Shown: positions 4,250 through 48,822 of the stretch, piece by piece | How the letters are laid out: every line of letters starts with the position of its first letter | Position numbering within the stretch: position 1 is the first letter of the stretch | Assembly (NCBI GenBank): GCA_044350895.1 | Contig: JBILGT010000003.1 | Span: 10,671-74,670, forward strand | Reading direction: 5' to 3' | Length of the DNA stretch: 64,000 nt | Source of the DNA: Limisphaerales bacterium | GTDB taxonomy: Bacteria > Patescibacteriota > Microgenomatia > UBA1400 > PJMF01 | Notes under the pieces: model-generated | The model's database searches: none | What the model was told of the DNA's origin: nothing | What the model saw: the letters and a program-made list of their open reading frames with translations, nothing else | Translations under genes and position numbers: made by a program

Positions 4250-7200
4250 TTATCTAAAGTTCACCGCGCCGCCGTTATAGAGGTCTTTGACCTGGGCGGG
4301 GGTGAGGGCGTAGTTGTAGATGCGGACGTCGTCGATCTGGCCTGAAGAATAGAAAGTTGATGAGGTAGAGGTCCCTAATCGACCAATTGAAAAGCCTGAA
4401 GCAGTACCAGAGTTTTGTACTGTTTGAGCAACAGTATTTATTAATCTTCCATCTTTATAGTATTTAATACTGCTACCATCTACAGTGGCAGTTATGTGTG
4501 TCCAATTAGTAGAAGGGAATCCTGTGGAGTTCCAATCTGAAGCGACAACAGCTTGTTGTCCACTTATTCCATCAGATGTCCATATTTCTACTGCATCACC
4601 ACTATCTCTAAAAATCATCCCCCAAATAGAAATATTTCCTCCATTACTTGCAGATTCTGCGATAGCGGAACTGCCCCAATTAGAGGGTTTAATCCAGAAT
4701 GACAATGAGTAATTACTAGGTTTACCTAAAAAAGTTCCTAAATTAAGATAGTCATCTGTATCATCAAACTCCAGACTACTATTAAACTTGCCACTTGCAC
4801 CATCTTTCCAGGCTTCACCCGTGCTACCTTTACAACTGCCAGCAGTAGTGTTGGATCCAGAAGCTCCGATAGTGATTGTGCCGTTATTGCCGGCTGCTTC
4901 GCCATTGCTGTTAAGTGCTGAGTTGTAGGCAGTAGTACCCTGACATTCATCAAGTTTGTAGTGGGCAACGGGACCACCTCGGTTGTACTCCCAAGCCACT
5001 TGGGCTGGAGTGCGGGCGTAGTTGTAAATTCTCATGTTGTCTACCATGCCGCCAAAGTAATTTGAGGCACTGGAGCCTTCTCGGCCGATAGCAAGGATGT
5101 TGGCTGTAGAGTTGAGTGAGCCAGTTACTGAGGAAGCTGTGCCGCGTAGAATGCCGTTTGTGTAGAATTTAAGGGTGTTGGCAGTGGCGTCACGGACTAC
5201 TGTGAGCTGGTCCCAGCGTGAAGTACTTGGGGTTGTGGTGGTATCGGTAACAGAATATGTAGTGCTACCACTATACACAAATGCTTGCCATTGATTTGCA
5301 GCACTCAAGCGCATGCCGTACTGGCGAGAGGTTGTCGCTGAGGTGTTACCTTTACCCATAATGAGGCGTGCTGTTGAGTCCACAGCATTTGGTTTTACCC
5401 AAGTACTAATGGTGAGGTCTCCGGTAATATTGAGCGAACTGCTGTCGGCAACACTGACATATGAGTTGGATGGTGAGAGATTTACTCCGCTACCAGTTTT
5501 ACCAGTGGTCCAAGTGGGGCCATTGGTCAGTGTGCCCGTGTTGTTATTGCCACTAGTGTCGTTTGCTGTTGTCCCGGTGTTTTCATCAAACTTCCATTCG
5601 GCAACCGGCGGATTGCAGGTTGCGGTATCGCCGGGCACACAATATTCTCGACTGGATGAGTTGTCAGGAGTAGTTCCATTGGAGGCGGTGGAAGTGGCTC
5701 CCAATTGCACAGCAGCACCGCGGTTGTATTCTAGGCGGATGTCGTCTTCAGTGAGGGCGTAGTTGTAGATTTTGACTTCGTCGATGAGGCCGTGCATATA
5801 ATATTCTGTGCCTACAGTAGTTGTGCCGATACGTGTTATATCGGTACTGGCAATACTACCGCTTACCAATGTTGAAGATACCAGTTTATTATTTATATAT
5901 AATCTTGCTGTTGAACCATCCCATGTTCCAACAATGTGATACCATGTGTCGGTTGTCAGATTATCAATGTTGTATATGGGTACATTCGACCATGCAGTCA
6001 TAGCATCGGGAAGCATAAATGCCAGCTGAGACCGATCATTTACATCACCATATACATATAGAAAATACCCACTATCATTTCTTACTAAAATTCGAGCAGT
6101 ATTCGTATTGTCCGATGGAAAAGAGCTAAACTTTGCCCACGTAGAAATGCTTATAGAACTTGCGGGTATGATGCTACTATTGTTTCCTACGCTCACATAA
6201 TCATTCGTTCCATCAAATGCCAGTGCCTTGCCAAACTTGCCAGCACTGCTCCAACCGCTGGTACTTGTGGCAGGGGCGGCCATGTTGGTCAGTGTCCCAT
6301 CGTTGTTTTGTGGACTAGAATCTTGAGCTGTTGTGCCATAACCATCATCAAATCCTAGATGCAGTACGGGATTTCCCACACTGCCACCCACCGCTGGTTC
6401 ATAGCCCTCGCGCCCATTCATCACATTTACGATTTGTTTTTGAGAGAGAGCGTAGTTATAGATGCGGACGTCGTCGATTGCACCATTAAGATACCAATTG
6501 TTATCACTTCTAGCTCCTAGACTTATGTTTGCACTAGATTCGTTTCCTAATGTGAGACTGCCACTGCCAACCTGTAAGCCATTAATAAATATTGTTACTG
6601 TACTACCTGTATAGGTAAACGCGACATGCGTCCATTGCCCAGTAGAGATTGTTTGATTGGAACAAATGCTACTAGTCCCGTTATATACATAGACCTTACC
6701 AGTTGAACCACTTCCGCAGACTTCTGCATCGGTGTAAGTACCATTTACTCCAAAAGCCCATCCAACTGTCCCAGTGTATTTTGATATCATGTAATTTACA
6801 AATTGGTGAGAATAACTAGTAGGGTTGACCCATAAACTCACAGTCTTTGTACTAAGATTATCAATATTAGTTTGACTACCTCCATTAATATAATCATCAC
6901 TCCCATCAAACTTCACACCACTACCAAACTTACCTGGTGCCCAAGTAGGGCCGTTGGTGAGAGTACCCGTATTGCTGTTACTACTGGCGTCAGCAGCAGA
7001 TGTTCCAGTGTTTTCGTCAAGTTTCCAGTGTGCCACAGGCCCTGGGGCATAGTTGTAGAGATCTTGAACTTCATCAGGAGAGAGAGCGCGGTTGTAGATG
7101 CGGACTTCGTCGAGGGAGCCAGCATAGGGGTTCAAGTTTGCTCCATAATCTCCTAAATAAAAGCTAGATGAAGTACCTATAGAGCCACTTGTACTTCCAA

Positions 7201-10200
7201 TTGTAGAGTCAAGTTGTCCATTGAGATATATTTTTTTGGTTGAGCCGTCATATACTGCAGTTACTAAATACCAATTCTGCGTAGTTAGTGCTGTGTTATT
7301 TTTAAGCAGGGAGCCCCCCCAGTTTTCGCCAGTTAAAAAGCGGATTTTACTATCGGTATCAATGTCAAGTTTGAAGATACTTTCATTGGCAATGAAGGCT
7401 TTACGTGTAGTTCCCAATGCACTCGGTTTTATCCAAGCTGCAATGGTGATTTTGTCCGAAAATGTGCCCAGACCGTTACTATCCACCACATAATCCCCAG
7501 TCCCATCCAAGCTCACGCCATTCCCAAACTTTCCACTGCCAGTTGTGGCATCACCATTCCAAGCTCCGTCGTTACCATTGCCTGACTTATCACAGGTATC
7601 GTTAGTGCCATTGGAGCAAGTATTGGCAGCAGCTTCATCCATTGGGTAGTAGGCCACCAGGCCTTGGTTTAGCTTTTCAAGTGTGCCATCGCCTAGCTGG
7701 GCACTCGCTCCTTCAGAAGTACCTTTTGCAGTGTAATCAAGCGTGATTTGTTGGGCAGTGCGCTCGTAGTTGTACAGCCTGACTTCATCAATAAAGCCGT
7801 GGAAGTTGGCGCTGCTAGAACCTCCCAGCAACCAGTCATTGCCATCGCTGGCAGGAGCGCCACTGCCGTTACTAGATGTACCGCGCAGTTTACCGTCTAT
7901 GTACACGGAGATCTCATCATCACTATCATCTGTGTATGCTAGTGCCACGTGGTGCCACTCATTGAGTGGCAAGCCATTGGTGATCGTGACCGTGGCATCA
8001 CTGCTGGCCAAATCAAGTGAGGCCTCCAAATCCACCAGCCGATCACTGCCTTCATTAGTGGTACGCAGATAGGTGCTATCTCCTTTAGATACAATCTGAC
8101 CAACGTTTGTTTCACCATCAGAGCTGACTTTTACCCAGCCAGCAAAACTGACTCCAGCTGCTAGACCTTGATCTAAATCAAGCGCAGTGGTGTTGGTGAT
8201 ACTGACACTATTATCTGAGCCATTGAACTCCAAACAGTTATTGGAGTAACAACTCTCACTGGTGCGGCGAGTGGGGGTGGAGGTGGGTGGTGAACCTGCT
8301 TGCACTATCAGATCAGCAGATGAAACAGTAGTAGTATTGGTACTAGAATTTTTAATTTGTGCATCGATGTTTTTGGCAGCCACTGGCATGGTGAGGGCAT
8401 TTGAACGTTGGCGAGAATAGGAAGCGCCTGTTGTACTGACTTCAGAACTCGAAACGGCTGTTACATCACTGCTGTTATAGAGCTGCGCGTAGCCAGTGCC
8501 GGCACTTGTCTTGATATCAGATTCAAAGTAGTAATTTGTCGAGCCAGAAAAAAGTGCCGGGTCAAAGTAGTTTAAGCCGTTTTGAGAGGTGTAGGCAGTG
8601 TCAACATCAGTCTGTGCGGTATTAACCAAGTTGTACACCAATTCAGTCCCATAAATCGTGCCACTTTGATCAAGCACAGCTCGAGCGTTGGCAATCTGCG
8701 CGGTGTTGGCTGTAGTCTTAATACAAACCATGTAGTCAGTATCATCATTCAAGGTAACGGCACTACTACGTACTCGAGTCCAGGTGGTACCTGTCACCGT
8801 CACTTCAGAACCACTAACCACAGTCGTGCAACTTGCGCCATCACTATAGAGTGCCACTGAAGTAGTCTGTCCTGCAGTGCTGTTTGAAATTGTAGCTTCA
8901 AAATAAGTAGTGGGGGTTGGAGTAAATTTGTTGGCATCATATCTATAGATTTTTTTATTGGTGAGTTGTGTATACGAAGTTGCGGTACTGGTTTCGTAGT
9001 TTCCCACTTCTACTTGGGTTTGGGTGGCACTGAGAGCACCACTTTGACTAACAATCATACGTGCTGCTCGGACATCTGCTGTAATGTTAAGAGAGTCAGT
9101 GGAAGCAAGCCGAATACCATAGGCGGTAGCAGTTGTGGGGGAGATAGCTGGGGTACGCAGCCTACTGTAACTACTGGATCGGGTAGTTATGATGCCATCA
9201 GGCACTGCTGCTCCAGAGGAAGAAACCAATTGCGCCCAGACTCGATCTGCCCCATCATCGGCTAGATTAGTAGTTCCGGAAGCGCAGGTGCCGTTATTAC
9301 AATCGGCAAAATAAATATCACCATTATCTGTTTCATGGTAGGCTACTTTGCAGTCATTGAGGCCAGCTTTGCAATCCAATGAAAAAACAATTTCAAAAGT
9401 ATTAGTAGTACTGCACCCAGTCAAAGCACAACCATTTGTGCCATCTAGGACAGTAGTGGTACCGCTGGTGCATGCTGCATTATCACAGTCAGCAAAACTA
9501 AAGTCATAGCTCCGGTAATACGCAACTTTACAGTTACTGCCATCACCACCACAGGCGATAGTAGGGCTGTCGGCAAAGACTGAGGTAGAACAGTTGGTCA
9601 GTGCACAACCCGCAGAACCCTCGAGCTGGCTTATAGTGCCGCTGGTACAGGTGGCATTGTTACAGTCCACAAAGTTGAGATCACCACCGGTACTATTGTA
9701 GTACGCAATTTTGCAATCACTGGCACCTGGGGAACAATCTATGGTAGTACCAGTACCACTACTCGTGGAAGTGCTACAGCCAGTGAGGAGGCAGCCAGTG
9801 TCACCTTCTAAAATACTAGCGGTACCACTGGTACAAGCTGCGTTATCGCAGTCAGCAAACCGGAGTGACGTGCGCGTGTTGTCATAATAGGCAATCTTAC
9901 AATCAGTGGCAGTAGGACAACTCAAAGCAGCATTAATACCAACATCATTGGTGGTGCTACAGCCAGTCAGGGCACAGCCAGTGGTGCCATCGACAACCGT
10001 CCTGGTCCCGGAACTACAGGTGGCAGTGTCACAGTCCGCAAATAATAGATCATCGGTAGTCTCATTTTTGTAGGCAATTTTGCAGTCCGCGGTCCCGGCT
10101 GAACAGTCAATATTAGGATGAGTCCCCACCGTTGCAGATGTCGTACAGCCAGTCAGTGGGCAACTAGCTCCACCGTCAATCATGCGCGTGGTGCCGACGT

Positions 10201-11413
10201 TACAGGTGGCACTATCACAATCTGCAAAGTACAAGTCGTCTGTACTGCCGTCCACATAGTAGGCTATTTTGCAGTCGTTGACTCCAGTAGAACAATCAAG
10301 GGCCACATAGCCACCAGCGTCGGCAGTAGTAACACAGCCAGTCAGTGTACAGCCATCTTTGCCATCTAAGTAGACAAGCGTCCCTGTGCTGCATGTTGCA
10401 TTATCACAATCATAAAAGACCAGTGCTGATTCAGTAGTGTCGTAGTAGGCGATTTTACAGTCACTTGATCCACCAGTACAGTCAACATCAGTGTAATAAC
10501 CCACAACACTTTTAAGTGCGCCATCGCCATCAATAGTTTGTTGCGTTCCACTATTGCAGGTGGCACTATCGCAGTCTGCAAAGGTTAAGTCTGCAAGATC
10601 ATCATTTTGATAAACAAATTTACAATCGGTAGCAGACAGACACTTCATCTCAGCATAGTGTCCAGTTGAAGCAGTTGTAGAACAGCCAGTCAAGCCACAG
10701 CCGGTATTACCGTCAACTAAGGTGATAGAACCACTGCTACAGGTGGCATTGCTGCAGTCTGCAAAACGCAGGTCATCGGTGGTGGTGCGGAAGAAGCCAA
10801 TTTTGCAGTCGGTACTGCCACCAATACAATCCACAATGATATATCCACCACTGCTGCCAGAAGTGATGCAACCAGTTAAGGCACAACCTGCGTTACCCTC
10901 TATGAGTGTGGTGGTCCCAGAGCTACAGGTGGCGGTATCACAATCAGCAAAGTATAGGTCGCTGTCTGTTGAGTTATAGTACCCAATTTTACAGTCATCA
11001 CTAGCAGTACAGTACAAGCTGGCATTTGCCCCTACCACATCAGTGGTACTGCAGCCGGTAAGCGGACAGCTGGCCGCTCCGTCTACGGTTGTTACACTTC
11101 CGCTAGTACAGGCAGCATTATTGCAGTCAGCAAAAATCAAGTCATCGGCAGTGTCGTTGAAGTACGCAAGTTTGCAGTCGGTGGCTGTGACACAAAAAAG
11201 ACTAGTATAGGAAGCAGTGCTAATCCCAGTATTACAGCCAGTCAGGACACAGCCAGAACCACCATCCAGTTGTGTCAATGTTCCAGAACTACAAGTGGCA
11301 GTATCACAGTCTACAAAAAATACATCTGGCGTTGATGCGATTGGTCGTAATCCACTCGCTAGTAAAGCAATTATTTTTAGCATCATGATGAATACAGTAC
11401 TCAGTATTGGCAT
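4250..11413 (-). CDS. Giant secreted/surface protein: signal peptide, ~11 tandem 6-Cys ~61-aa repeats, Ser/Thr-rich linker, 6 LamG (concanavalin A-like lectin, Laminin_G_3-type) domains
   Basis: 2387 aa. The N-terminus MMLKIIALLASGLRPIAS is signal-peptide like, so the true start is probably the ATG pair near 11386/11383. Aa ~33-712 hold repeats of the form FADCxxATCSSGTxTxxDGxxGCxLTGCxT...DCxxGxxDCKIAYYxxTxDDLxFADC. Six motifs of the IDEVRIYNYAL(T/S)xxQ(I/V)xxLYN type are typical of LamG / Laminin_G_3 domains. Confidence 0.85.
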   Translation of the reverse strand: MPILSTVFIMMLKIIALLASGLRPIASTPDVFFVDCDTATCSSGTLTQLDGGSGCVLTGCNTGISTASYTSLFCVTATDCKLAYFNDTADDLIFADCNNAACTSGSVTTVDGAASCPLTGCSTTDVVGANASLYCTASDDCKIGYYNSTDSDLYFADCDTATCSSGTTTLIEGNAGCALTGCITSGSSGGYIIVDCIGGSTDCKIGFFRTTTDDLRFADCSNATCSSGSITLVDGNTGCGLTGCSTTASTGHYAEMKCLSATDCKFVYQNDDLADLTFADCDSATCNSGTQQTIDGDGALKSVVGYYTDVDCTGGSSDCKIAYYDTTESALVFYDCDNATCSTGTLVYLDGKDGCTLTGCVTTADAGGYVALDCSTGVNDCKIAYYVDGSTDDLYFADCDSATCNVGTTRMIDGGASCPLTGCTTSATVGTHPNIDCSAGTADCKIAYKNETTDDLLFADCDTATCSSGTRTVVDGTTGCALTGCSTTNDVGINAALSCPTATDCKIAYYDNTRTSLRFADCDNAACTSGTASILEGDTGCLLTGCSTSTSSGTGTTIDCSPGASDCKIAYYNSTGGDLNFVDCNNATCTSGTISQLEGSAGCALTNCSTSVFADSPTIACGGDGSNCKVAYYRSYDFSFADCDNAACTSGTTTVLDGTNGCALTGCSTTNTFEIVFSLDCKAGLNDCKVAYHETDNGDIYFADCNNGTCASGTTNLADDGADRVWAQLVSSSGAAVPDGIITTRSSSYSRLRTPAISPTTATAYGIRLASTDSLNITADVRAARMIVSQSGALSATQTQVEVGNYETSTATSYTQLTNKKIYRYDANKFTPTPTTYFEATISNSTAGQTTSVALYSDGASCTTVVSGSEVTVTGTTWTRVRSSAVTLNDDTDYMVCIKTTANTAQIANARAVLDQSGTIYGTELVYNLVNTAQTDVDTAYTSQNGLNYFDPALFSGSTNYYFESDIKTSAGTGYAQLYNSSDVTAVSSSEVSTTGASYSRQRSNALTMPVAAKNIDAQIKNSSTNTTTVSSADLIVQAGSPPTSTPTRRTSESCYSNNCLEFNGSDNSVSITNTTALDLDQGLAAGVSFAGWVKVSSDGETNVGQIVSKGDSTYLRTTNEGSDRLVDLEASLDLASSDATVTITNGLPLNEWHHVALAYTDDSDDEISVYIDGKLRGTSSNGSGAPASDGNDWLLGGSSSANFHGFIDEVRLYNYERTAQQITLDYTAKGTSEGASAQLGDGTLEKLNQGLVAYYPMDEAAANTCSNGTNDTCDKSGNGNDGAWNGDATTGSGKFGNGVSLDGTGDYVVDSNGLGTFSDKITIAAWIKPSALGTTRKAFIANESIFKLDIDTDSKIRFLTGENWGGSLLKNNTALTTQNWYLVTAVYDGSTKKIYLNGQLDSTIGSTSGSIGTSSSFYLGDYGANLNPYAGSLDEVRIYNRALSPDEVQDLYNYAPGPVAHWKLDENTGTSAADASSNSNTGTLTNGPTWAPGKFGSGVKFDGSDDYINGGSQTNIDNLSTKTVSLWVNPTSYSHQFVNYMISKYTGTVGWAFGVNGTYTDAEVCGSGSTGKVYVYNGTSSICSNQTISTGQWTHVAFTYTGSTVTIFINGLQVGSGSLTLGNESSANISLGARSDNNWYLNGAIDDVRIYNYALSQKQIVNVMNGREGYEPAVGGSVGNPVLHLGFDDGYGTTAQDSSPQNNDGTLTNMAAPATSTSGWSSAGKFGKALAFDGTNDYVSVGNNSSIIPASSISISTWAKFSSFPSDNTNTARILVRNDSGYFLYVYGDVNDRSQLAFMLPDAMTAWSNVPIYNIDNLTTDTWYHIVGTWDGSTARLYINNKLVSSTLVSGSIASTDITRIGTTTVGTEYYMHGLIDEVKIYNYALTEDDIRLEYNRGAAVQLGATSTASNGTTPDNSSSREYCVPGDTATCNPPVAEWKFDENTGTTANDTSGNNNTGTLTNGPTWTTGKTGSGVNLSPSNSYVSVADSSSLNITGDLTISTWVKPNAVDSTARLIMGKGNTSATTSRQYGMRLSAANQWQAFVYSGSTTYSVTDTTTTPSTSRWDQLTVVRDATANTLKFYTNGILRGTASSVTGSLNSTANILAIGREGSSASNYFGGMVDNMRIYNYARTPAQVAWEYNRGGPVAHYKLDECQGTTAYNSALNSNGEAAGNNGTITIGASGSNTTAGSCKGSTGEAWKDGASGKFNSSLEFDDTDDYLNLGTFLGKPSNYSLSFWIKPSNWGSSAIAESASNGGNISIWGMIFRDSGDAVEIWTSDGISGQQAVVASDWNSTGFPSTNWTHITATVDGSSIKYYKDGRLINTVAQTVQNSGTASGFSIGRLGTSTSSTFYSSGQIDDVRIYNYALTPAQVKDLYNGGAVNFR
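9278..11317 (-). repeat. Coding tandem repeat array (~11-12 units of ~183 bp) encoding the 6-Cys repeat module of the giant protein
   Basis: The protein periodicity (FADC...DCKIAYY every ~61 aa) maps to these coordinates. Unit boundaries are approximate. Confidence 0.6.
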
Positions 11414-40115: not shown

Positions 40116-40124
40116 TAAAAAGAG

Positions 40125-40198
40125 TAGCAGGACTGAGATTCGAACTCAGGACCTTCGGTTTATGAATCCGATGCTCTAACCAACTGAGCTATCCTGCC
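40125..40198 (-). tRNA. tRNA-Met (anticodon CAT; elongator-type; tRNA-Ile2/lysidine cannot be excluded)
   Basis: Minus-strand sequence GGCAGGATAGCTCAGTTGGTTAGAGCATCGGATTCATAAACCGAAGGTCCTGAGTTCGAATCTCAGTCCTGCTA. It folds into a standard cloverleaf with a TTCGAAT T-loop and anticodon loop TTCATAA. CCA is not encoded. Confidence 0.8.
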
Positions 40199-40253
40199 TT
40201 GATGTGCTTTCGGTACAGTATACCTGTGCAACGATGGCAAATTATATCAGGTT

Positions 40254-40283
40254 TTGACGGATTGGTTAAGGATGAGGTATAAT
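40254..40283 (+). promoter_or_regulatory. Sigma70-like promoter TTGACG-(17/18)-TATAAT for the initiator tRNA
   Basis: -35 at 40254-40259, -10 TATAAT at 40278-40283. The tRNA starts at 40338. Confidence 0.4.
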
Positions 40284-40337
40284 CAGAATTTCTCAAGACT
40301 TTATCTTGCAAGAGTAAAGCCACGAATTTGAGATTCG

Positions 40338-40406
40338 CGCGGGGTAGTGTACGGTGCACGTGAGGCTCATAATCTCACAGGCCGGGTTCGACTCCCGGCC
40401 CCGCAA
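40338..40406 (+). tRNA. Initiator-like tRNA-fMet (anticodon CAT), unusually compact (69 nt)
   Basis: CGCGGGGTAGTGTACGGTGCACGTGAGGCTCATAATCTCACAGGCCGGGTTCGACTCCCGGCCCCGCAA. The acceptor stem is identical to E. coli tRNA-fMet, including the C1xA72 mismatch. Anticodon loop CTCATAA; T-arm CCGGG-TTCGACT-CCCGG. It has a short D-arm and a 4-nt variable loop. The anticodon stem lacks the three consecutive G-C pairs. Confidence 0.6.
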
Positions 40407-40415
40407 CATTAAATA

Positions 40416-46243: not shown

Positions 46244-47149
46244 TTGTGTTGCTGTTTAGAAAGCATAAAAGGTATGAATACGTCAGTTACATTACAAGAA
46301 GCACATGCACAATTTGTTGATGCATTAAAGCAGGCCTCCAAGGCTCATGCTACGGTTATTGCGTATAGCAAAGATATTGAGCAATTGATCGATTTTGTGG
46401 CGCGTGAAAAAAATAAACACGCTGCACAAGAAGTTGCTGACAGTGATATTGAAGATTTTAAAGAGTTACTCAAAAAACAGAGATATACCGGAAAATCTAT
46501 TTCCCGAAAAATTAACTCAATCAAAGCTTTTTTCCGTTATTTACAGAACCAGGGCAGTATTGAAAGTAATCCAGCAGATGTCATCAGTCATCCAAAATAT
46601 GACCAGACACCTCCTCGTGTTCTTTCAAAAACAGAGTATCGCGCACTTCGCGACGCTTGCCGTGGAGATGCTCGTATGGCTGCAGTTGTAGAACTGCTCC
46701 TCCAGACAGGTATGCGTATCAGTGAACTCGCTGCTCTCCAAGTGCAAGATCTTGACTTAGATCGCAATGTAATTACGATTCAGCCTCAAGAAGCTCGCGG
46801 TGCACGCCGTGTTCCATTAAATGCAGCAGCAAAACAATCTGTTATGGATTACCTTGCTGTCAGACCACGTGCTCGAGAAAAAACACTTTTCTTAACAAAA
46901 ACTTGTCGTCCATTTTTGGTTCGTAACATTCGTACAGCACTTGACCGCTACTTTAGATTGGCTGGCATCAAAGATGCTAAGGTTAACGACTTACGCCACA
47001 CCTTTATCATTGAACAACTCAAGGCTGGTACACCGTTGGTGTACATCTCTCAATTGGTAGGCCACAAACGCATTACGACAACTGAGAAATATCTTAAATT
47101 GATTGAGGCTCCAGATATGCAGCCTAATATTCAAATTGAAGAGCTGTAA
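46244..47149 (+). CDS. Tyrosine site-specific recombinase, XerC/XerD family
   Basis: 301 aa. The probable start is MNTSV at 46274. Catalytic region LLQTGMRISELAALQV...RHTFIIEQLKAGTPLVYISQLVGHKRITTTEKYLKL (R..H-R-H..Y). Confidence 0.85.
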   Translation: MCCCLESIKGMNTSVTLQEAHAQFVDALKQASKAHATVIAYSKDIEQLIDFVAREKNKHAAQEVADSDIEDFKELLKKQRYTGKSISRKINSIKAFFRYLQNQGSIESNPADVISHPKYDQTPPRVLSKTEYRALRDACRGDARMAAVVELLLQTGMRISELAALQVQDLDLDRNVITIQPQEARGARRVPLNAAAKQSVMDYLAVRPRAREKTLFLTKTCRPFLVRNIRTALDRYFRLAGIKDAKVNDLRHTFIIEQLKAGTPLVYISQLVGHKRITTTEKYLKLIEAPDMQPNIQIEEL

Positions 47150-47192
47150 ACGTAACCACTCCTGTAATTGCATATGTTTTTAGAATAGCTCC

Positions 47193-47328
47193 TTGGCGAG
47201 TTCAGGCTTTAGCGTATAATTGTGTATCTATGATACAGACATCAGCAATCCAATTTTCTTGGTGGCAACTCTCAGAGTAAGGCGAGGGTGTGTTCTGTGT
47301 CATAACTCCCGCCATCGCGGGTTTTTTT
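47193..47328 (+). promoter_or_regulatory. Candidate ribosome-mediated attenuator of trpS: promoter + 16-codon leader ORF with tandem Trp codons + intrinsic terminator
   Basis: Promoter TTGGCG-16-TATAAT (47193-47220). Leader ORF ATG ATA CAG ACA TCA GCA ATC CAA TTT TCT TGG TGG CAA CTC TCA GAG TAA (47230-47280) encodes MIQTSAIQFSWWQLSE. The terminator hairpin CCCGC-CATC-GCGGG plus T7 lies at 47308-47328. The trpS ATG is at 47404. Confidence 0.5.
47308..47328 (+). terminator. Rho-independent terminator in trpS leader
   Basis: CCCGC CATC GCGGG TTTTTTT. Confidence 0.7.
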
Positions 47329-47403
47329 GTAATTACTCGCGATTGCTGCAAAACACAGGTGAAATAAGTACAATCAATTAATTGAATTAATAAGGAAATA
47401 ACT

Positions 47404-48462
47404 ATGACAACAACACAATCAAGTGAAACACAACAAAAACGAGTCCTCTCAGGTATCAGAGCCACAGGAAGACTACATTTAGGTAACTACTTAGGTGCTG
47501 TGAAAGGCATGCTTGAGCTGCAAAAAGATTCGAGCATCGAGACTTTGTACATGGTGGCAGATATTCATACCATTACAACTCCATATAAAGTTGCTGAGTT
47601 GCGCGATAATCGCCGTCAAGTAATCATGGACTATTTGGCAGCTGGTCTTGATCCTGAAAAATCAATATTGTTCTTGCAATCAATGGTGCCACAGCACACT
47701 GAACTTTCTTTTTACTTTTCTTCAGTCATGAGTATTGCTCGTATGCAGCATCTCCCCACGTTTAAAGATAAAGTGAAGCAGTATCCAGATTTTGCTACTA
47801 TGGCGCTGCTTAACTATCCTATTTTAATGAGTGCAGATATTTTGGTCTACAAAGCTGGCCTTGTACCTGTAGGTATTGATCAGGAACCACATCTGGAAAT
47901 TGCCCGAGAGGTTGCTCGAAAAATGAATGAGCAGTATGGATTGGATTTCCCTGAACCACAACGATTTGCTACAAAAGCAGAATATGTCCCATCCCTCAAA
48001 GGCGAAGGAAAGATGAGTAAAAGTGTGGAAGGCAGTTTCATTAACTTAACAGATGACGAAGCGACTATTCTCAAAAGACTTTCAGCTGCCCCAACCGATT
48101 CTGGCAAGGGCAAAATTGTTAAGGCCGAAGGCAAATTTGAAAAGAGTTATGTTGATCAAGCTGGCACAGTATCAAGTGGTGGAGTCCAGAGTTTGCTAGA
48201 ATTTGTAGAACTCTTCCAAGGGATGGACAAACGCAGTGAGTACGAAGCAGCGTATCAAAGTTCTGGCATTCGCTACGGTGACCTTAAAAAAGAACTTGCA
48301 CAAGCAATTTACAAGGAGCTTCAACCAATTCAAGAAAAACGTGAACAACTTGAAGCAGATACTGACTATGTCGATTCAGTGATAGAATCTGGTGCAGCAC
48401 GTGCACAAGCAATTGCGCAAAAAACAGTGATGCAAGTACGTGAAGCAATGGGACTTGGATAA
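47404..48462 (+). CDS. trpS: Tryptophan--tRNA ligase
   Basis: 352 aa. HIGH-type motif SGIRATGRLHLGNYLG, KMSKS motif GEGKMSKSVEGS, and a size typical of TrpRS. Confidence 0.9.
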   Translation: MTTTQSSETQQKRVLSGIRATGRLHLGNYLGAVKGMLELQKDSSIETLYMVADIHTITTPYKVAELRDNRRQVIMDYLAAGLDPEKSILFLQSMVPQHTELSFYFSSVMSIARMQHLPTFKDKVKQYPDFATMALLNYPILMSADILVYKAGLVPVGIDQEPHLEIAREVARKMNEQYGLDFPEPQRFATKAEYVPSLKGEGKMSKSVEGSFINLTDDEATILKRLSAAPTDSGKGKIVKAEGKFEKSYVDQAGTVSSGGVQSLLEFVELFQGMDKRSEYEAAYQSSGIRYGDLKKELAQAIYKELQPIQEKREQLEADTDYVDSVIESGAARAQAIAQKTVMQVREAMGLG

Positions 48463-48486: not shown

Positions 48487-48822
48487 ATGACACAAAAACC
48501 ATCAATTCAGTATGACGACTTTGCCAAGCTCGATATTCGAGTTGTAACTATTATTGAAGCCACAGAGATTGAGGGTGCAGATAAACTGCTCAAGCTCGTT
48601 TTAGATGCTGGAGAGCTCGGTAGCAGAACAGTTGCATCTGGTATTAAGCCTTGGTATAAACCAGAAGACTTGGTGGGCAAACAAATTTTATACTTAGCCA
48701 ATCTGGAGCCAAGAATGTTGCGTGGCGTTGAGAGCCAAGGAATGATCATTGCCGCAGGTGGAGTTGATGCTGTGTTGGTACAGCCAGACAAGCAGATTGA
48801 AAATGGATCGATAGTTAGATAA
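48487..48822 (+). CDS. tRNA-binding protein CsaA/Trbp111-like (EMAP/MetRS C-terminal-like tRNA-binding domain)
   Basis: 111 aa. FAKLDIRVVTIIEATEIEGADKLLKLVLDAGE...SGIKPWYKPEDLVGKQILYLANLEPRMLRGVESQGMII. Confidence 0.75.
   Translation: MTQKPSIQYDDFAKLDIRVVTIIEATEIEGADKLLKLVLDAGELGSRTVASGIKPWYKPEDLVGKQILYLANLEPRMLRGVESQGMIIAAGGVDAVLVQPDKQIENGSIVR

Follow-up and report, generated by a model that had tools for sequence, protein, structure and literature searches.

A conserved Trp-codon leader in front of trpS in Patescibacteria, a probable ribosome-mediated attenuator

The element described here lies directly upstream of trpS, the gene for tryptophan--tRNA ligase (tryptophanyl-tRNA synthetase, TrpRS), at positions 47193-47403 of a 64,000-nucleotide (nt) stretch of contig JBILGT010000003.1; the whole stretch that was analyzed is called the window below. 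The element contains a promoter, a short open reading frame (ORF) with two consecutive Trp codons, and a hairpin followed by seven U residues (U7). It is highly probable that it works as a ribosome-mediated leader-peptide transcription attenuator, which senses charged tRNA-Trp and controls trpS and probably also the tRNA-binding gene that follows. The feature is real, and it represents a previously undescribed family, in a new phylum, of a textbook mechanism.

Among described systems, the closest are those of Streptomyces. Classical attenuators before trpS and leuS were predicted in this genus in 2005 (PMC1262725), and RNA-seq of S. lividans TK24 mapped leaderless trpL1 before trpE and leaderless trpL2 before trpS (PMC8079986). 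Ribosome-mediated attenuation of S. coelicolor trpRS1 is the subject of reference 57 of PMC4787780. A first-pass annotation of the window, made by a model from the letters of the DNA, had regarded attenuation as unexpected for trpS; this was only partly right, since it does not hold for the Actinobacteria, where the two Streptomyces studies (PMC1262725, PMC8079986) provide precedents. As in trpL2-trpS, a short, predicted leaderless ORF with Trp codons is placed directly before a TrpRS gene in the window and is followed by hairpins. The regulatory logic would also be the same, in that low charged tRNA-Trp would lead to more TrpRS. The two systems differ in their hosts, which are Patescibacteria (Candidate Phyla Radiation, CPR) here and Actinobacteria there. 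When the peptide sequences, and these only, are compared, the S. lividans peptide MMTRTCTQLWRAA and the window peptide MIQTSAIQFSWWQLSE have no evident similarity; the shared features are architectural. Furthermore, a single Trp codon is found in S. lividans trpL2, and a U-tract is missing there, whereas the window element has tandem Trp codons and a hairpin-U7 terminator. The gene regulated in S. coelicolor is reportedly an auxiliary, antibiotic-resistant copy. In the window, by contrast, no trpS other than the one described here was seen.

In the leader peptide of the Escherichia coli trp operon (trpL), the tandem Trp codons are codons 10-11 of 14. They are likewise near the end of the ORF here (codons 11-12 of 16), with the stop codon three to four codons later, and the scheme of alternative 1:2, 2:3 and 3:4 hairpins ends in an intrinsic terminator in both. 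Unlike in the trpL system, the gene under control would be an aminoacyl-tRNA synthetase gene, not a set of biosynthetic genes, and the ORF, which is without a Shine-Dalgarno sequence, is predicted to be leaderless. In the former respect the locus resembles E. coli pheST, an aminoacyl-tRNA synthetase operon under a leader peptide with cognate codons (pheM) and a terminator. The locus differs from pheST/pheM in amino acid, sequence and phylum, and translation of pheM uses a Shine-Dalgarno sequence. The pheST analogy was likewise drawn for trpS attenuators in PMC1262725.

T-box riboswitches have in common with the proposed attenuator that the charging state of a tRNA is sensed and that an aminoacyl-tRNA synthetase gene is controlled via a terminator/antiterminator switch. 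A T-box, however, reads uncharged tRNA directly, without an ORF, by means of Stem I, the specifier loop and the bulge, none of which is present here. The T-box riboswitch (RF00230) was rejected, as no covariance-model match was obtained and the leader is only ~100 nt long. Membership in Trp_leader (RF00513) of Rfam was also rejected: neither the window nor any of 20 related loci has a match to its covariance model. When the whole window, the leader region (47000-47600; E values up to 10) and the 20 related loci (gathering thresholds) were searched against Rfam, tRNAs alone were obtained. TRAP leaders are known to carry (G/U)AG triplets, nine to eleven in number and 2-3 nt apart; TRAP-type trp attenuation, as in Bacillus, was rejected for 47227-47330, which has two GAG triplets and no UAG. 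In the literature searched, no paper was found that joins CPR and transcription attenuation, and no such report was among the top-ranked matches listed for Patescibacteria together with leader peptide or attenuator.

Anatomy and conservation of the trpS leader

The features of the leader are given below. The promoter, the 16-codon ORF, the tandem TGG, the segment GGCGAGGG and the GC hairpin with U7 had been reported in the first-pass annotation, and each of them was recovered in its place.

47193-47220, plus strand: sigma-70-type promoter, with the -35 element TTGGCG (47193-47198), a 16-nt spacer and the -10 element TATAAT (47215-47220)
47230-47280, plus strand: putative leader-peptide ORF of 16 codons encoding MIQTSAIQFSWWQLSE, with ATG at 47230 and the stop codon TAA at 47278-47280
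47260-47265, plus strand: tandem TGG TGG (codons 11-12), the proposed sensing site, invariant in 10/10 copies and 30 nt from the ATG
47268-47289, plus strand: hairpin 1:2 (anti-antiterminator), ACUCUC 47268-47273 (codons 13-15) with GAGGGU 47284-47289, the stop codon being in the loop
47281-47288, plus strand: segment GGCGAGGG, part of the antiterminator 5' strand
47281-47313, plus strand: antiterminator 2:3, GGCG-A-GGGUGUG 47281-47292 with CAU-A-ACUC-C-CGCC 47301-47313
47308-47328, plus strand: intrinsic terminator 3:4, CCCGC 47308-47312, loop CAUC, GCGGG 47317-47321 and U7 47322-47328
47229-47304, plus strand: long-range helix, the 5' end including the AUG (~47229-47242) with the spacer before the terminator (~47289-47304)

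The 3' strand of the antiterminator contains the 5' arm of the terminator in the window. In a 12-kb scan, the promoter was the top consensus match (10/12) and the hairpin-U7 at 47308-47328 was the top-ranked terminator-like site.

For comparison, 174 trpS loci (numbered with the prefix L) were collected: 80 from a TrpRS scan of species-representative genomes, 14 with the closest metagenomic TrpRS, and 80 from a metagenome scan. The loci from the TrpRS-based metagenome scan were mostly more distant, and a pattern scan of the metagenome with TTGGTGGCRACTCTCNNNNTARNNCG gave no match. Ten distinct copies of the element were obtained, namely those of the window, L001, L002 (=L081-84), L003, L085, L086, L087, L090 (=L091), L092 (=L093) and L094. 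The TrpRS proteins of the nine other copies are 72-83% identical to that of the window. The first-pass annotation had proposed looking for the mini-ORF and its tandem TGG in relatives, and both are conserved: the element is kept in 10 of the 11 lineages with the xerC-like/trpS synteny and a TrpRS identity of at least 72%.

All ten copies have CTTGG at -35 and TATAAT or TATAGT at -10, and the spacer sequence is variable. The ORF is 16 codons long and the distance from the ATG to TGGTGG is 30 nt in every copy. The leader peptides follow the pattern M-[SIT]-[QH]-x(5)-[FT]-[SC]-W-W-[QR]-L-S-x-stop. Codons 2-9 are freely variable, yet frame 0 contains no stop codon, whereas the other two frames contain 2 and 7. 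This conservation of the frame supports translation of the mini-ORF. The distance between the -10 element and the ATG is 9 nt in the window and 6-10 nt across the copies. With the ATG so close to a conserved -10 element, the mini-ORF is predicted to be leaderless, with a 5' untranslated region of 0-4 nt.

It might be argued that these parts stand together by chance. The upstream xerC-like gene would then be terminated at the hairpin-U7, and it would be accidental that a promoter match and a mini-ORF with two consecutive Trp codons (WW) precede it. Indeed, the totals of promoter-like and terminator-like sites in the 12-kb scan are not above those in shuffled sequence, which means that the single sequence by itself is only suggestive, and the xerC-like gene, which ends at 47149, is followed by no other terminator. 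However, the parts are conserved jointly in ten lineages while the flanking intergenic sequence diverges, and this joint conservation in nine other distinct relatives takes the element beyond chance. In addition, genes are inserted between the xerC-like gene and trpS in L087, L092 and L094, and the element still adjoins trpS in all three; this assigns the element to trpS, not to the gene upstream. The enrichment of WW, described below, is also very strong. The chance explanation is effectively refuted by these comparative data.

Alternative RNA structures and ribosome position

The antiterminator 2:3 has a folding energy of -12.9 kcal/mol in the window and -10.6 to -13.9 kcal/mol over the ten copies. 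The corresponding values are -8.0 kcal/mol (-5.9 to -8.8 kcal/mol) for the terminator 3:4 and -5.9 kcal/mol (-5.0 to -9.6 kcal/mol) for the hairpin 1:2. The antiterminator is more stable than the terminator and than the hairpin 1:2 in 10/10 copies. A stable antiterminator that uses GGCGAGGG and is mutually exclusive with the terminator, as suspected in the first reading of the DNA, is present in each of them.

The terminator stem occurs in the variants CCCGC/GCGGG, CUCUC/GAGAG and CCUCG/CGAGG, which are compensatory changes. In MAFFT alignments, three of the ten terminators were out of register because the loop lengths differ. Hence, a covariance model of the hairpin 1:2 and the terminator was built and run over 100 sources, and the sequences were realigned to the model. 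In this alignment, 95.1% of the cells are paired, compared with 81.6% in shuffles (0/500 as high), a count that is biased towards the structure because the alignment was fitted to the covariance model. Seven of the 11 pairs change on both sides, and helix 1 (hairpin 1:2) is 94.8% paired. Controls in which the partner strand was slid sideways were 35-65% paired. The register of the antiterminator varies with the terminator subtype, which precludes a column-based covariation test. It should be mentioned that the 3' arm of the terminator (AUCGCGGGU, in the region 47314-47343) can also pair with the downstream ACUCGCGAU at 47335-47343. A CUCGC resembling the ACUCGCGAU region is present 3' of the terminator in L002 and L087.

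The positions of the Trp codons and of the stop codon were related to the pairing regions by assuming that a ribosome covers ~12 nt 3' of the first nucleotide of its A site. A ribosome that has the second Trp codon there would extend to ~47275, masking region 1 (47268-47273) and sparing region 2. One that has the stop codon there would extend to ~47290 and mask region 2 (47281-47289). In constrained folding with a ribosome at the stop codon, the terminator is formed in 10/10 copies. With a stall at codon 12, the terminator stem is wholly lost in five of the ten (L002, L003, L085, L092 and L094). In L086 and L090 the antiterminator forms and a shortened terminator-like stem of 3-4 base pairs stays. 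In L001 the 5' arm of the terminator pairs with region 2, and its 3' arm pairs elsewhere. The two other copies, those of the window and L087, are taken up below.

The following course of events may be envisaged. The RNA would start at, or a few nucleotides 5' of, the AUG, and a ribosome would initiate on the leaderless end. When Trp-tRNA-Trp is plentiful, this ribosome would reach the UAA and cover 47281-47289, the terminator at 47308-47328 would form, and transcription would stop. If there is no translation, the hairpin 1:2 would form and the terminator would again be allowed. When Trp-tRNA-Trp is scarce, the ribosome would stall when codon 11 or 12 occupies its A site, and it would then extend to ~47272-47275 and cover region 1. 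Region 2, being free, would pair with the 5' arm of the terminator to give the more stable antiterminator, and RNA polymerase would continue into trpS. Several of the features expected of a trp-type attenuator are found at this locus: an ORF with tandem Trp codons, an intervening terminator, an exclusive and more stable antiterminator, and a geometry that allows masking. The conservation, the antiterminator and this geometry support the attenuator interpretation that the first-pass annotation had put forward.

Diverged leaders, opposing points and rival explanations

Other Patescibacteria loci were searched for diverged leaders with a profile, with a covariance model and with a generic scan for ATG mini-ORFs followed by terminators. 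In the window and the 174 trpS loci, WW occurs in 22 of 111 distinct combinations of mini-ORF and terminator, all 22 being on the trpS strand, even though Trp accounts for only 1.02% of residues in the genome of the window. It is the commonest residue doublet in mini-ORFs preceding terminators at trpS loci. The loci with diverged leaders are as follows.

L063, 769-3981: leader MQSRIILSSWWSSLSETGVF, after a xerC-like gene, followed by trpB (TIGR00263, 584 bits), trpA (PF00290) and trpS
L161, 337-3496: leader MKMIPIVTIYFTWRHSV, followed by trpB and then a B3_4-TrpRS fusion
L064: leader MRCIPIVTIYFAWRGSI, followed by trpS
L115, 3478-4873: leader MKPTWWQTLFLRRARK, between trpS and a TrpB-like gene (NF009057, 662 bits)
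L138: leader MRNNELPIHRLISNWWQGDFWWSSG, positioned like that of L115; a similar ORF begins downstream, and shortly past its start the contig ends
L016 (511-2991), L068, L074 (2111-3987) and L151 (388-3330)/L045: WW leaders before operons ending in trpS
L124, L134 (3487-4366) and L135: WW leaders after trpS, before an M28-like gene
L100: WW leader after trpS, the nearest listed ORF being ~440 nt beyond the terminator

Genes of several kinds stand behind these leaders. Besides the trp genes, they encode an Asp/Glu-racemase-family protein (L074), an M28-like peptidase (L124/L134/L135), a DUF3182 protein and an AstE/AspA-like deacylase (L151/L045), and a second AstE/AspA-like deacylase (L016). In the folding with ribosome masks, 6 of 12 variant leaders switch (L016, L068, L074, L134, L135 and L151), and L063 also does so, which makes seven. 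The W-leader element is recurrent, not universal, at trpB-trpS clusters. Leader attenuators with Trp codons might be a recurrent device across the Patescibacteria and define a small tryptophan regulon; this extension is proposed tentatively, with clearly less confidence than the attenuator at trpS. If it were true, the uncharacterized genes behind the W-leaders of L074, L124/L134/L135, L151/L045 and L016 would have functions in Trp salvage in organisms unable to synthesize Trp de novo. It would also provide sequence-level evidence for tight coupling of transcription and translation and for the use of leaderless initiation in regulation in CPR bacteria.

Several points weigh against the attenuator. 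One of them, the bias of the model-fitted alignment, has been described above. Regions 1 and 2 are near-invariant, so that the hairpin 1:2 and the antiterminator are backed by conservation and energy, not by covariation. One close relative, L088/L089 (TrpRS 78% identical), is without the element; it has a 329-residue gene with no Pfam match between the xerC-like gene and trpS (1446-2500) and a 65-nt gap. Most trpB-trpS clusters in other Patescibacteria have no obvious W-leader. The mini-ORF at 47230-47280 has no Shine-Dalgarno sequence, so its translation would hinge on a transcript whose 5' end is the AUG or at most ~4 nt away from it. A -10-like GTACAAT (47368-47374) stands between the terminator and trpS and is kept in 10/10 copies, with the variants GCTACAAT or GTATAGAAT. 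If it is a promoter, it could let part of trpS expression bypass the attenuator. Alternatively, it could be an RNA element, as its UACAA has a complement, UUGUA, where the U-tract ends.

Furthermore, with a stall at codon 12, the full-length minimum-energy fold retains the terminator in the window and L087. The reason is that the spacer preceding the terminator pairs with the 5' end, AUG included. This long-range helix (z = -2.6) crosses the antiterminator and is found only in the window and L087 (L087 2342-2420); the other eight copies have a local hairpin of a U-run and an A-run at that position, which extends the antiterminator. If the window RNA is cut off just before the terminator's 3' arm and a ribosome is placed at the second Trp codon, the antiterminator is the minimum-energy fold (-13.7 kcal/mol). 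When a second ribosome is also placed on the AUG, the antiterminator wins at full length too. In L087 the two states are equal in energy. According to these folding models, the two copies would reach antitermination only by kinetic trapping or with a second ribosome at the 5' end, and the long-range helix seems to be a complication for a simple attenuation model in this subfamily.

If GTACAAT is taken to be the own promoter of trpS, the leader could be an independent small unit that yields a micropeptide of 16 residues or a trans-acting small RNA of ~100 nt, with no cis regulation by the Trp codons. The TACAAT kept in all copies would suit such an arrangement. So would the conservation of the peptide, which extends past WW (MSQT…FSWWQLS), and the well-structured terminated RNA (z = -2.7). 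Trans-acting small RNAs and peptides from attenuators are known in Sinorhizobium. However, the TACAAT of the window has no acceptable -35 element, and in the short copies it is located ~13 nt from the trpS ATG, which leaves no room for a Shine-Dalgarno sequence. A small unit would also leave unexplained the conserved and more stable antiterminator overlapping the terminator, the placement of WW and of the stop codon relative to regions 1 and 2, and the recurrence of diverged W-leaders specifically before trpB, trpBA-trpS and trpS. A trans function could, moreover, coexist with attenuation instead of replacing it. As a replacement for attenuation, this explanation is considered to be unlikely.

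Aminoacyl-tRNA synthetase genes are often under T-box control or autoregulation. The leader might accordingly be an untranslated riboregulator, in which UUCUUGGUGGCAACUCUC and the hairpins bind uncharged tRNA-Trp in a T-box-like manner (UGGC with the GCCA 3' end) or bind TrpRS, so that switching would be free of ribosomes. The missing Shine-Dalgarno sequence would be in line with this, as would a 20-nt block around TGGTGG that is conserved at the nucleotide level, some synonymous positions included. The Rfam searches described above, of the leader to an E value of 10 and of the 20 related loci at gathering thresholds, gave neither a T-box nor any other match pointing to such a regulator, and the element is ~100 nt long without Stem I or specifier architecture. 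An RNA-only sensor would need neither an ATG adjacent to the promoter, nor a stop-free frame of 16 codons, nor a conserved stop codon. In addition, what the diverged leaders have in common is the Trp codons of the ORF, not a nucleotide motif. A ribosome-free switch thus seems very unlikely, even less probable than the small unit.

trpS, its neighbors and implications

The genes downstream of the leader are the following.

47404-48462, plus strand: trpS, tryptophan--tRNA ligase of 352 residues (TIGR00233, 278.6 bits; cutoff 176.75), with the Shine-Dalgarno sequence AAGGA at 47392-47396
48487-48822, plus strand: stand-alone tRNA-binding domain protein of 111 residues (MetRS C-terminal / Trbp111 / CsaA-like, PF01588)

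The protein of 111 residues matches TIGR00399 (metG_C_term) with 119.1 bits (cutoff 116.65), and the CsaA models score below their cutoffs. The initial description of this gene as CsaA-like and tRNA-binding was right as to tRNA binding, and the CsaA label was not borne out. The gap between trpS and this gene is 24 nt, and the order trpS, tRNA-binding gene, ftsH is kept in relatives. From the short gap and the conserved synteny, co-transcription of the two genes is plausible, and the tRNA-binding gene would then probably be under the control of the attenuator as well.

The TrpRS of the window contains no Trp residue, compared with ~3.6 expected from the share of Trp in 43 long ORFs of the window (1.02% of residues), as would suit an enzyme whose synthesis is needed during Trp shortage. 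No trpB, trpA or other trp gene is present within the 64-kb window; judged from this window alone, the organism probably does not make Trp de novo. The nearest named TrpRS proteins are from Patescibacteria or Candidatus Woesebacteria.

Regulatory RNA elements of the CPR are almost unexplored. A conserved Trp attenuator would imply that bacteria with reduced genomes, which are probably auxotrophic, monitor charged tRNA-Trp and adjust TrpRS, and that in these bacteria transcription is coupled to translation and leaderless initiation is in use. The element is a new cis-regulatory family that could join Rfam. It might also serve as a handle for function prediction, as the genes behind W-leaders are candidates for tryptophan acquisition. 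The mechanism itself is already known; the value of the element lies in the extension of a textbook mechanism and in its use for annotation, not in a new concept.

In close relatives, the neighborhood consists of a divIC-like gene (minus strand), the xerC-like gene, the gap, trpS, the tRNA-binding gene and ftsH. Variation is seen in the domains of TrpRS: the enzymes of L092 (2501-4051) and L094 (2501-4009) have an extra N-terminal YbaK-like tRNA_edit domain (PF04073), and that of L161 (1808-3496) has an N-terminal B3_4 domain (PF03483). Among L001-L080, many contigs that have this gene order and a TrpRS of the Patescibacteria type bear the titles 'uncultured Pseudomonadales', 'uncultured Gammaproteobacteria' or 'Methylococcaceae bacterium'. 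These record titles are probably taxonomic mislabels of metagenome-assembled genomes. Elsewhere in the window, two divergently oriented tRNA-Met (CAT) genes are located 140 nt apart (40124-40407), and an ORF of 2387 residues is found on the minus strand (4250-11413).

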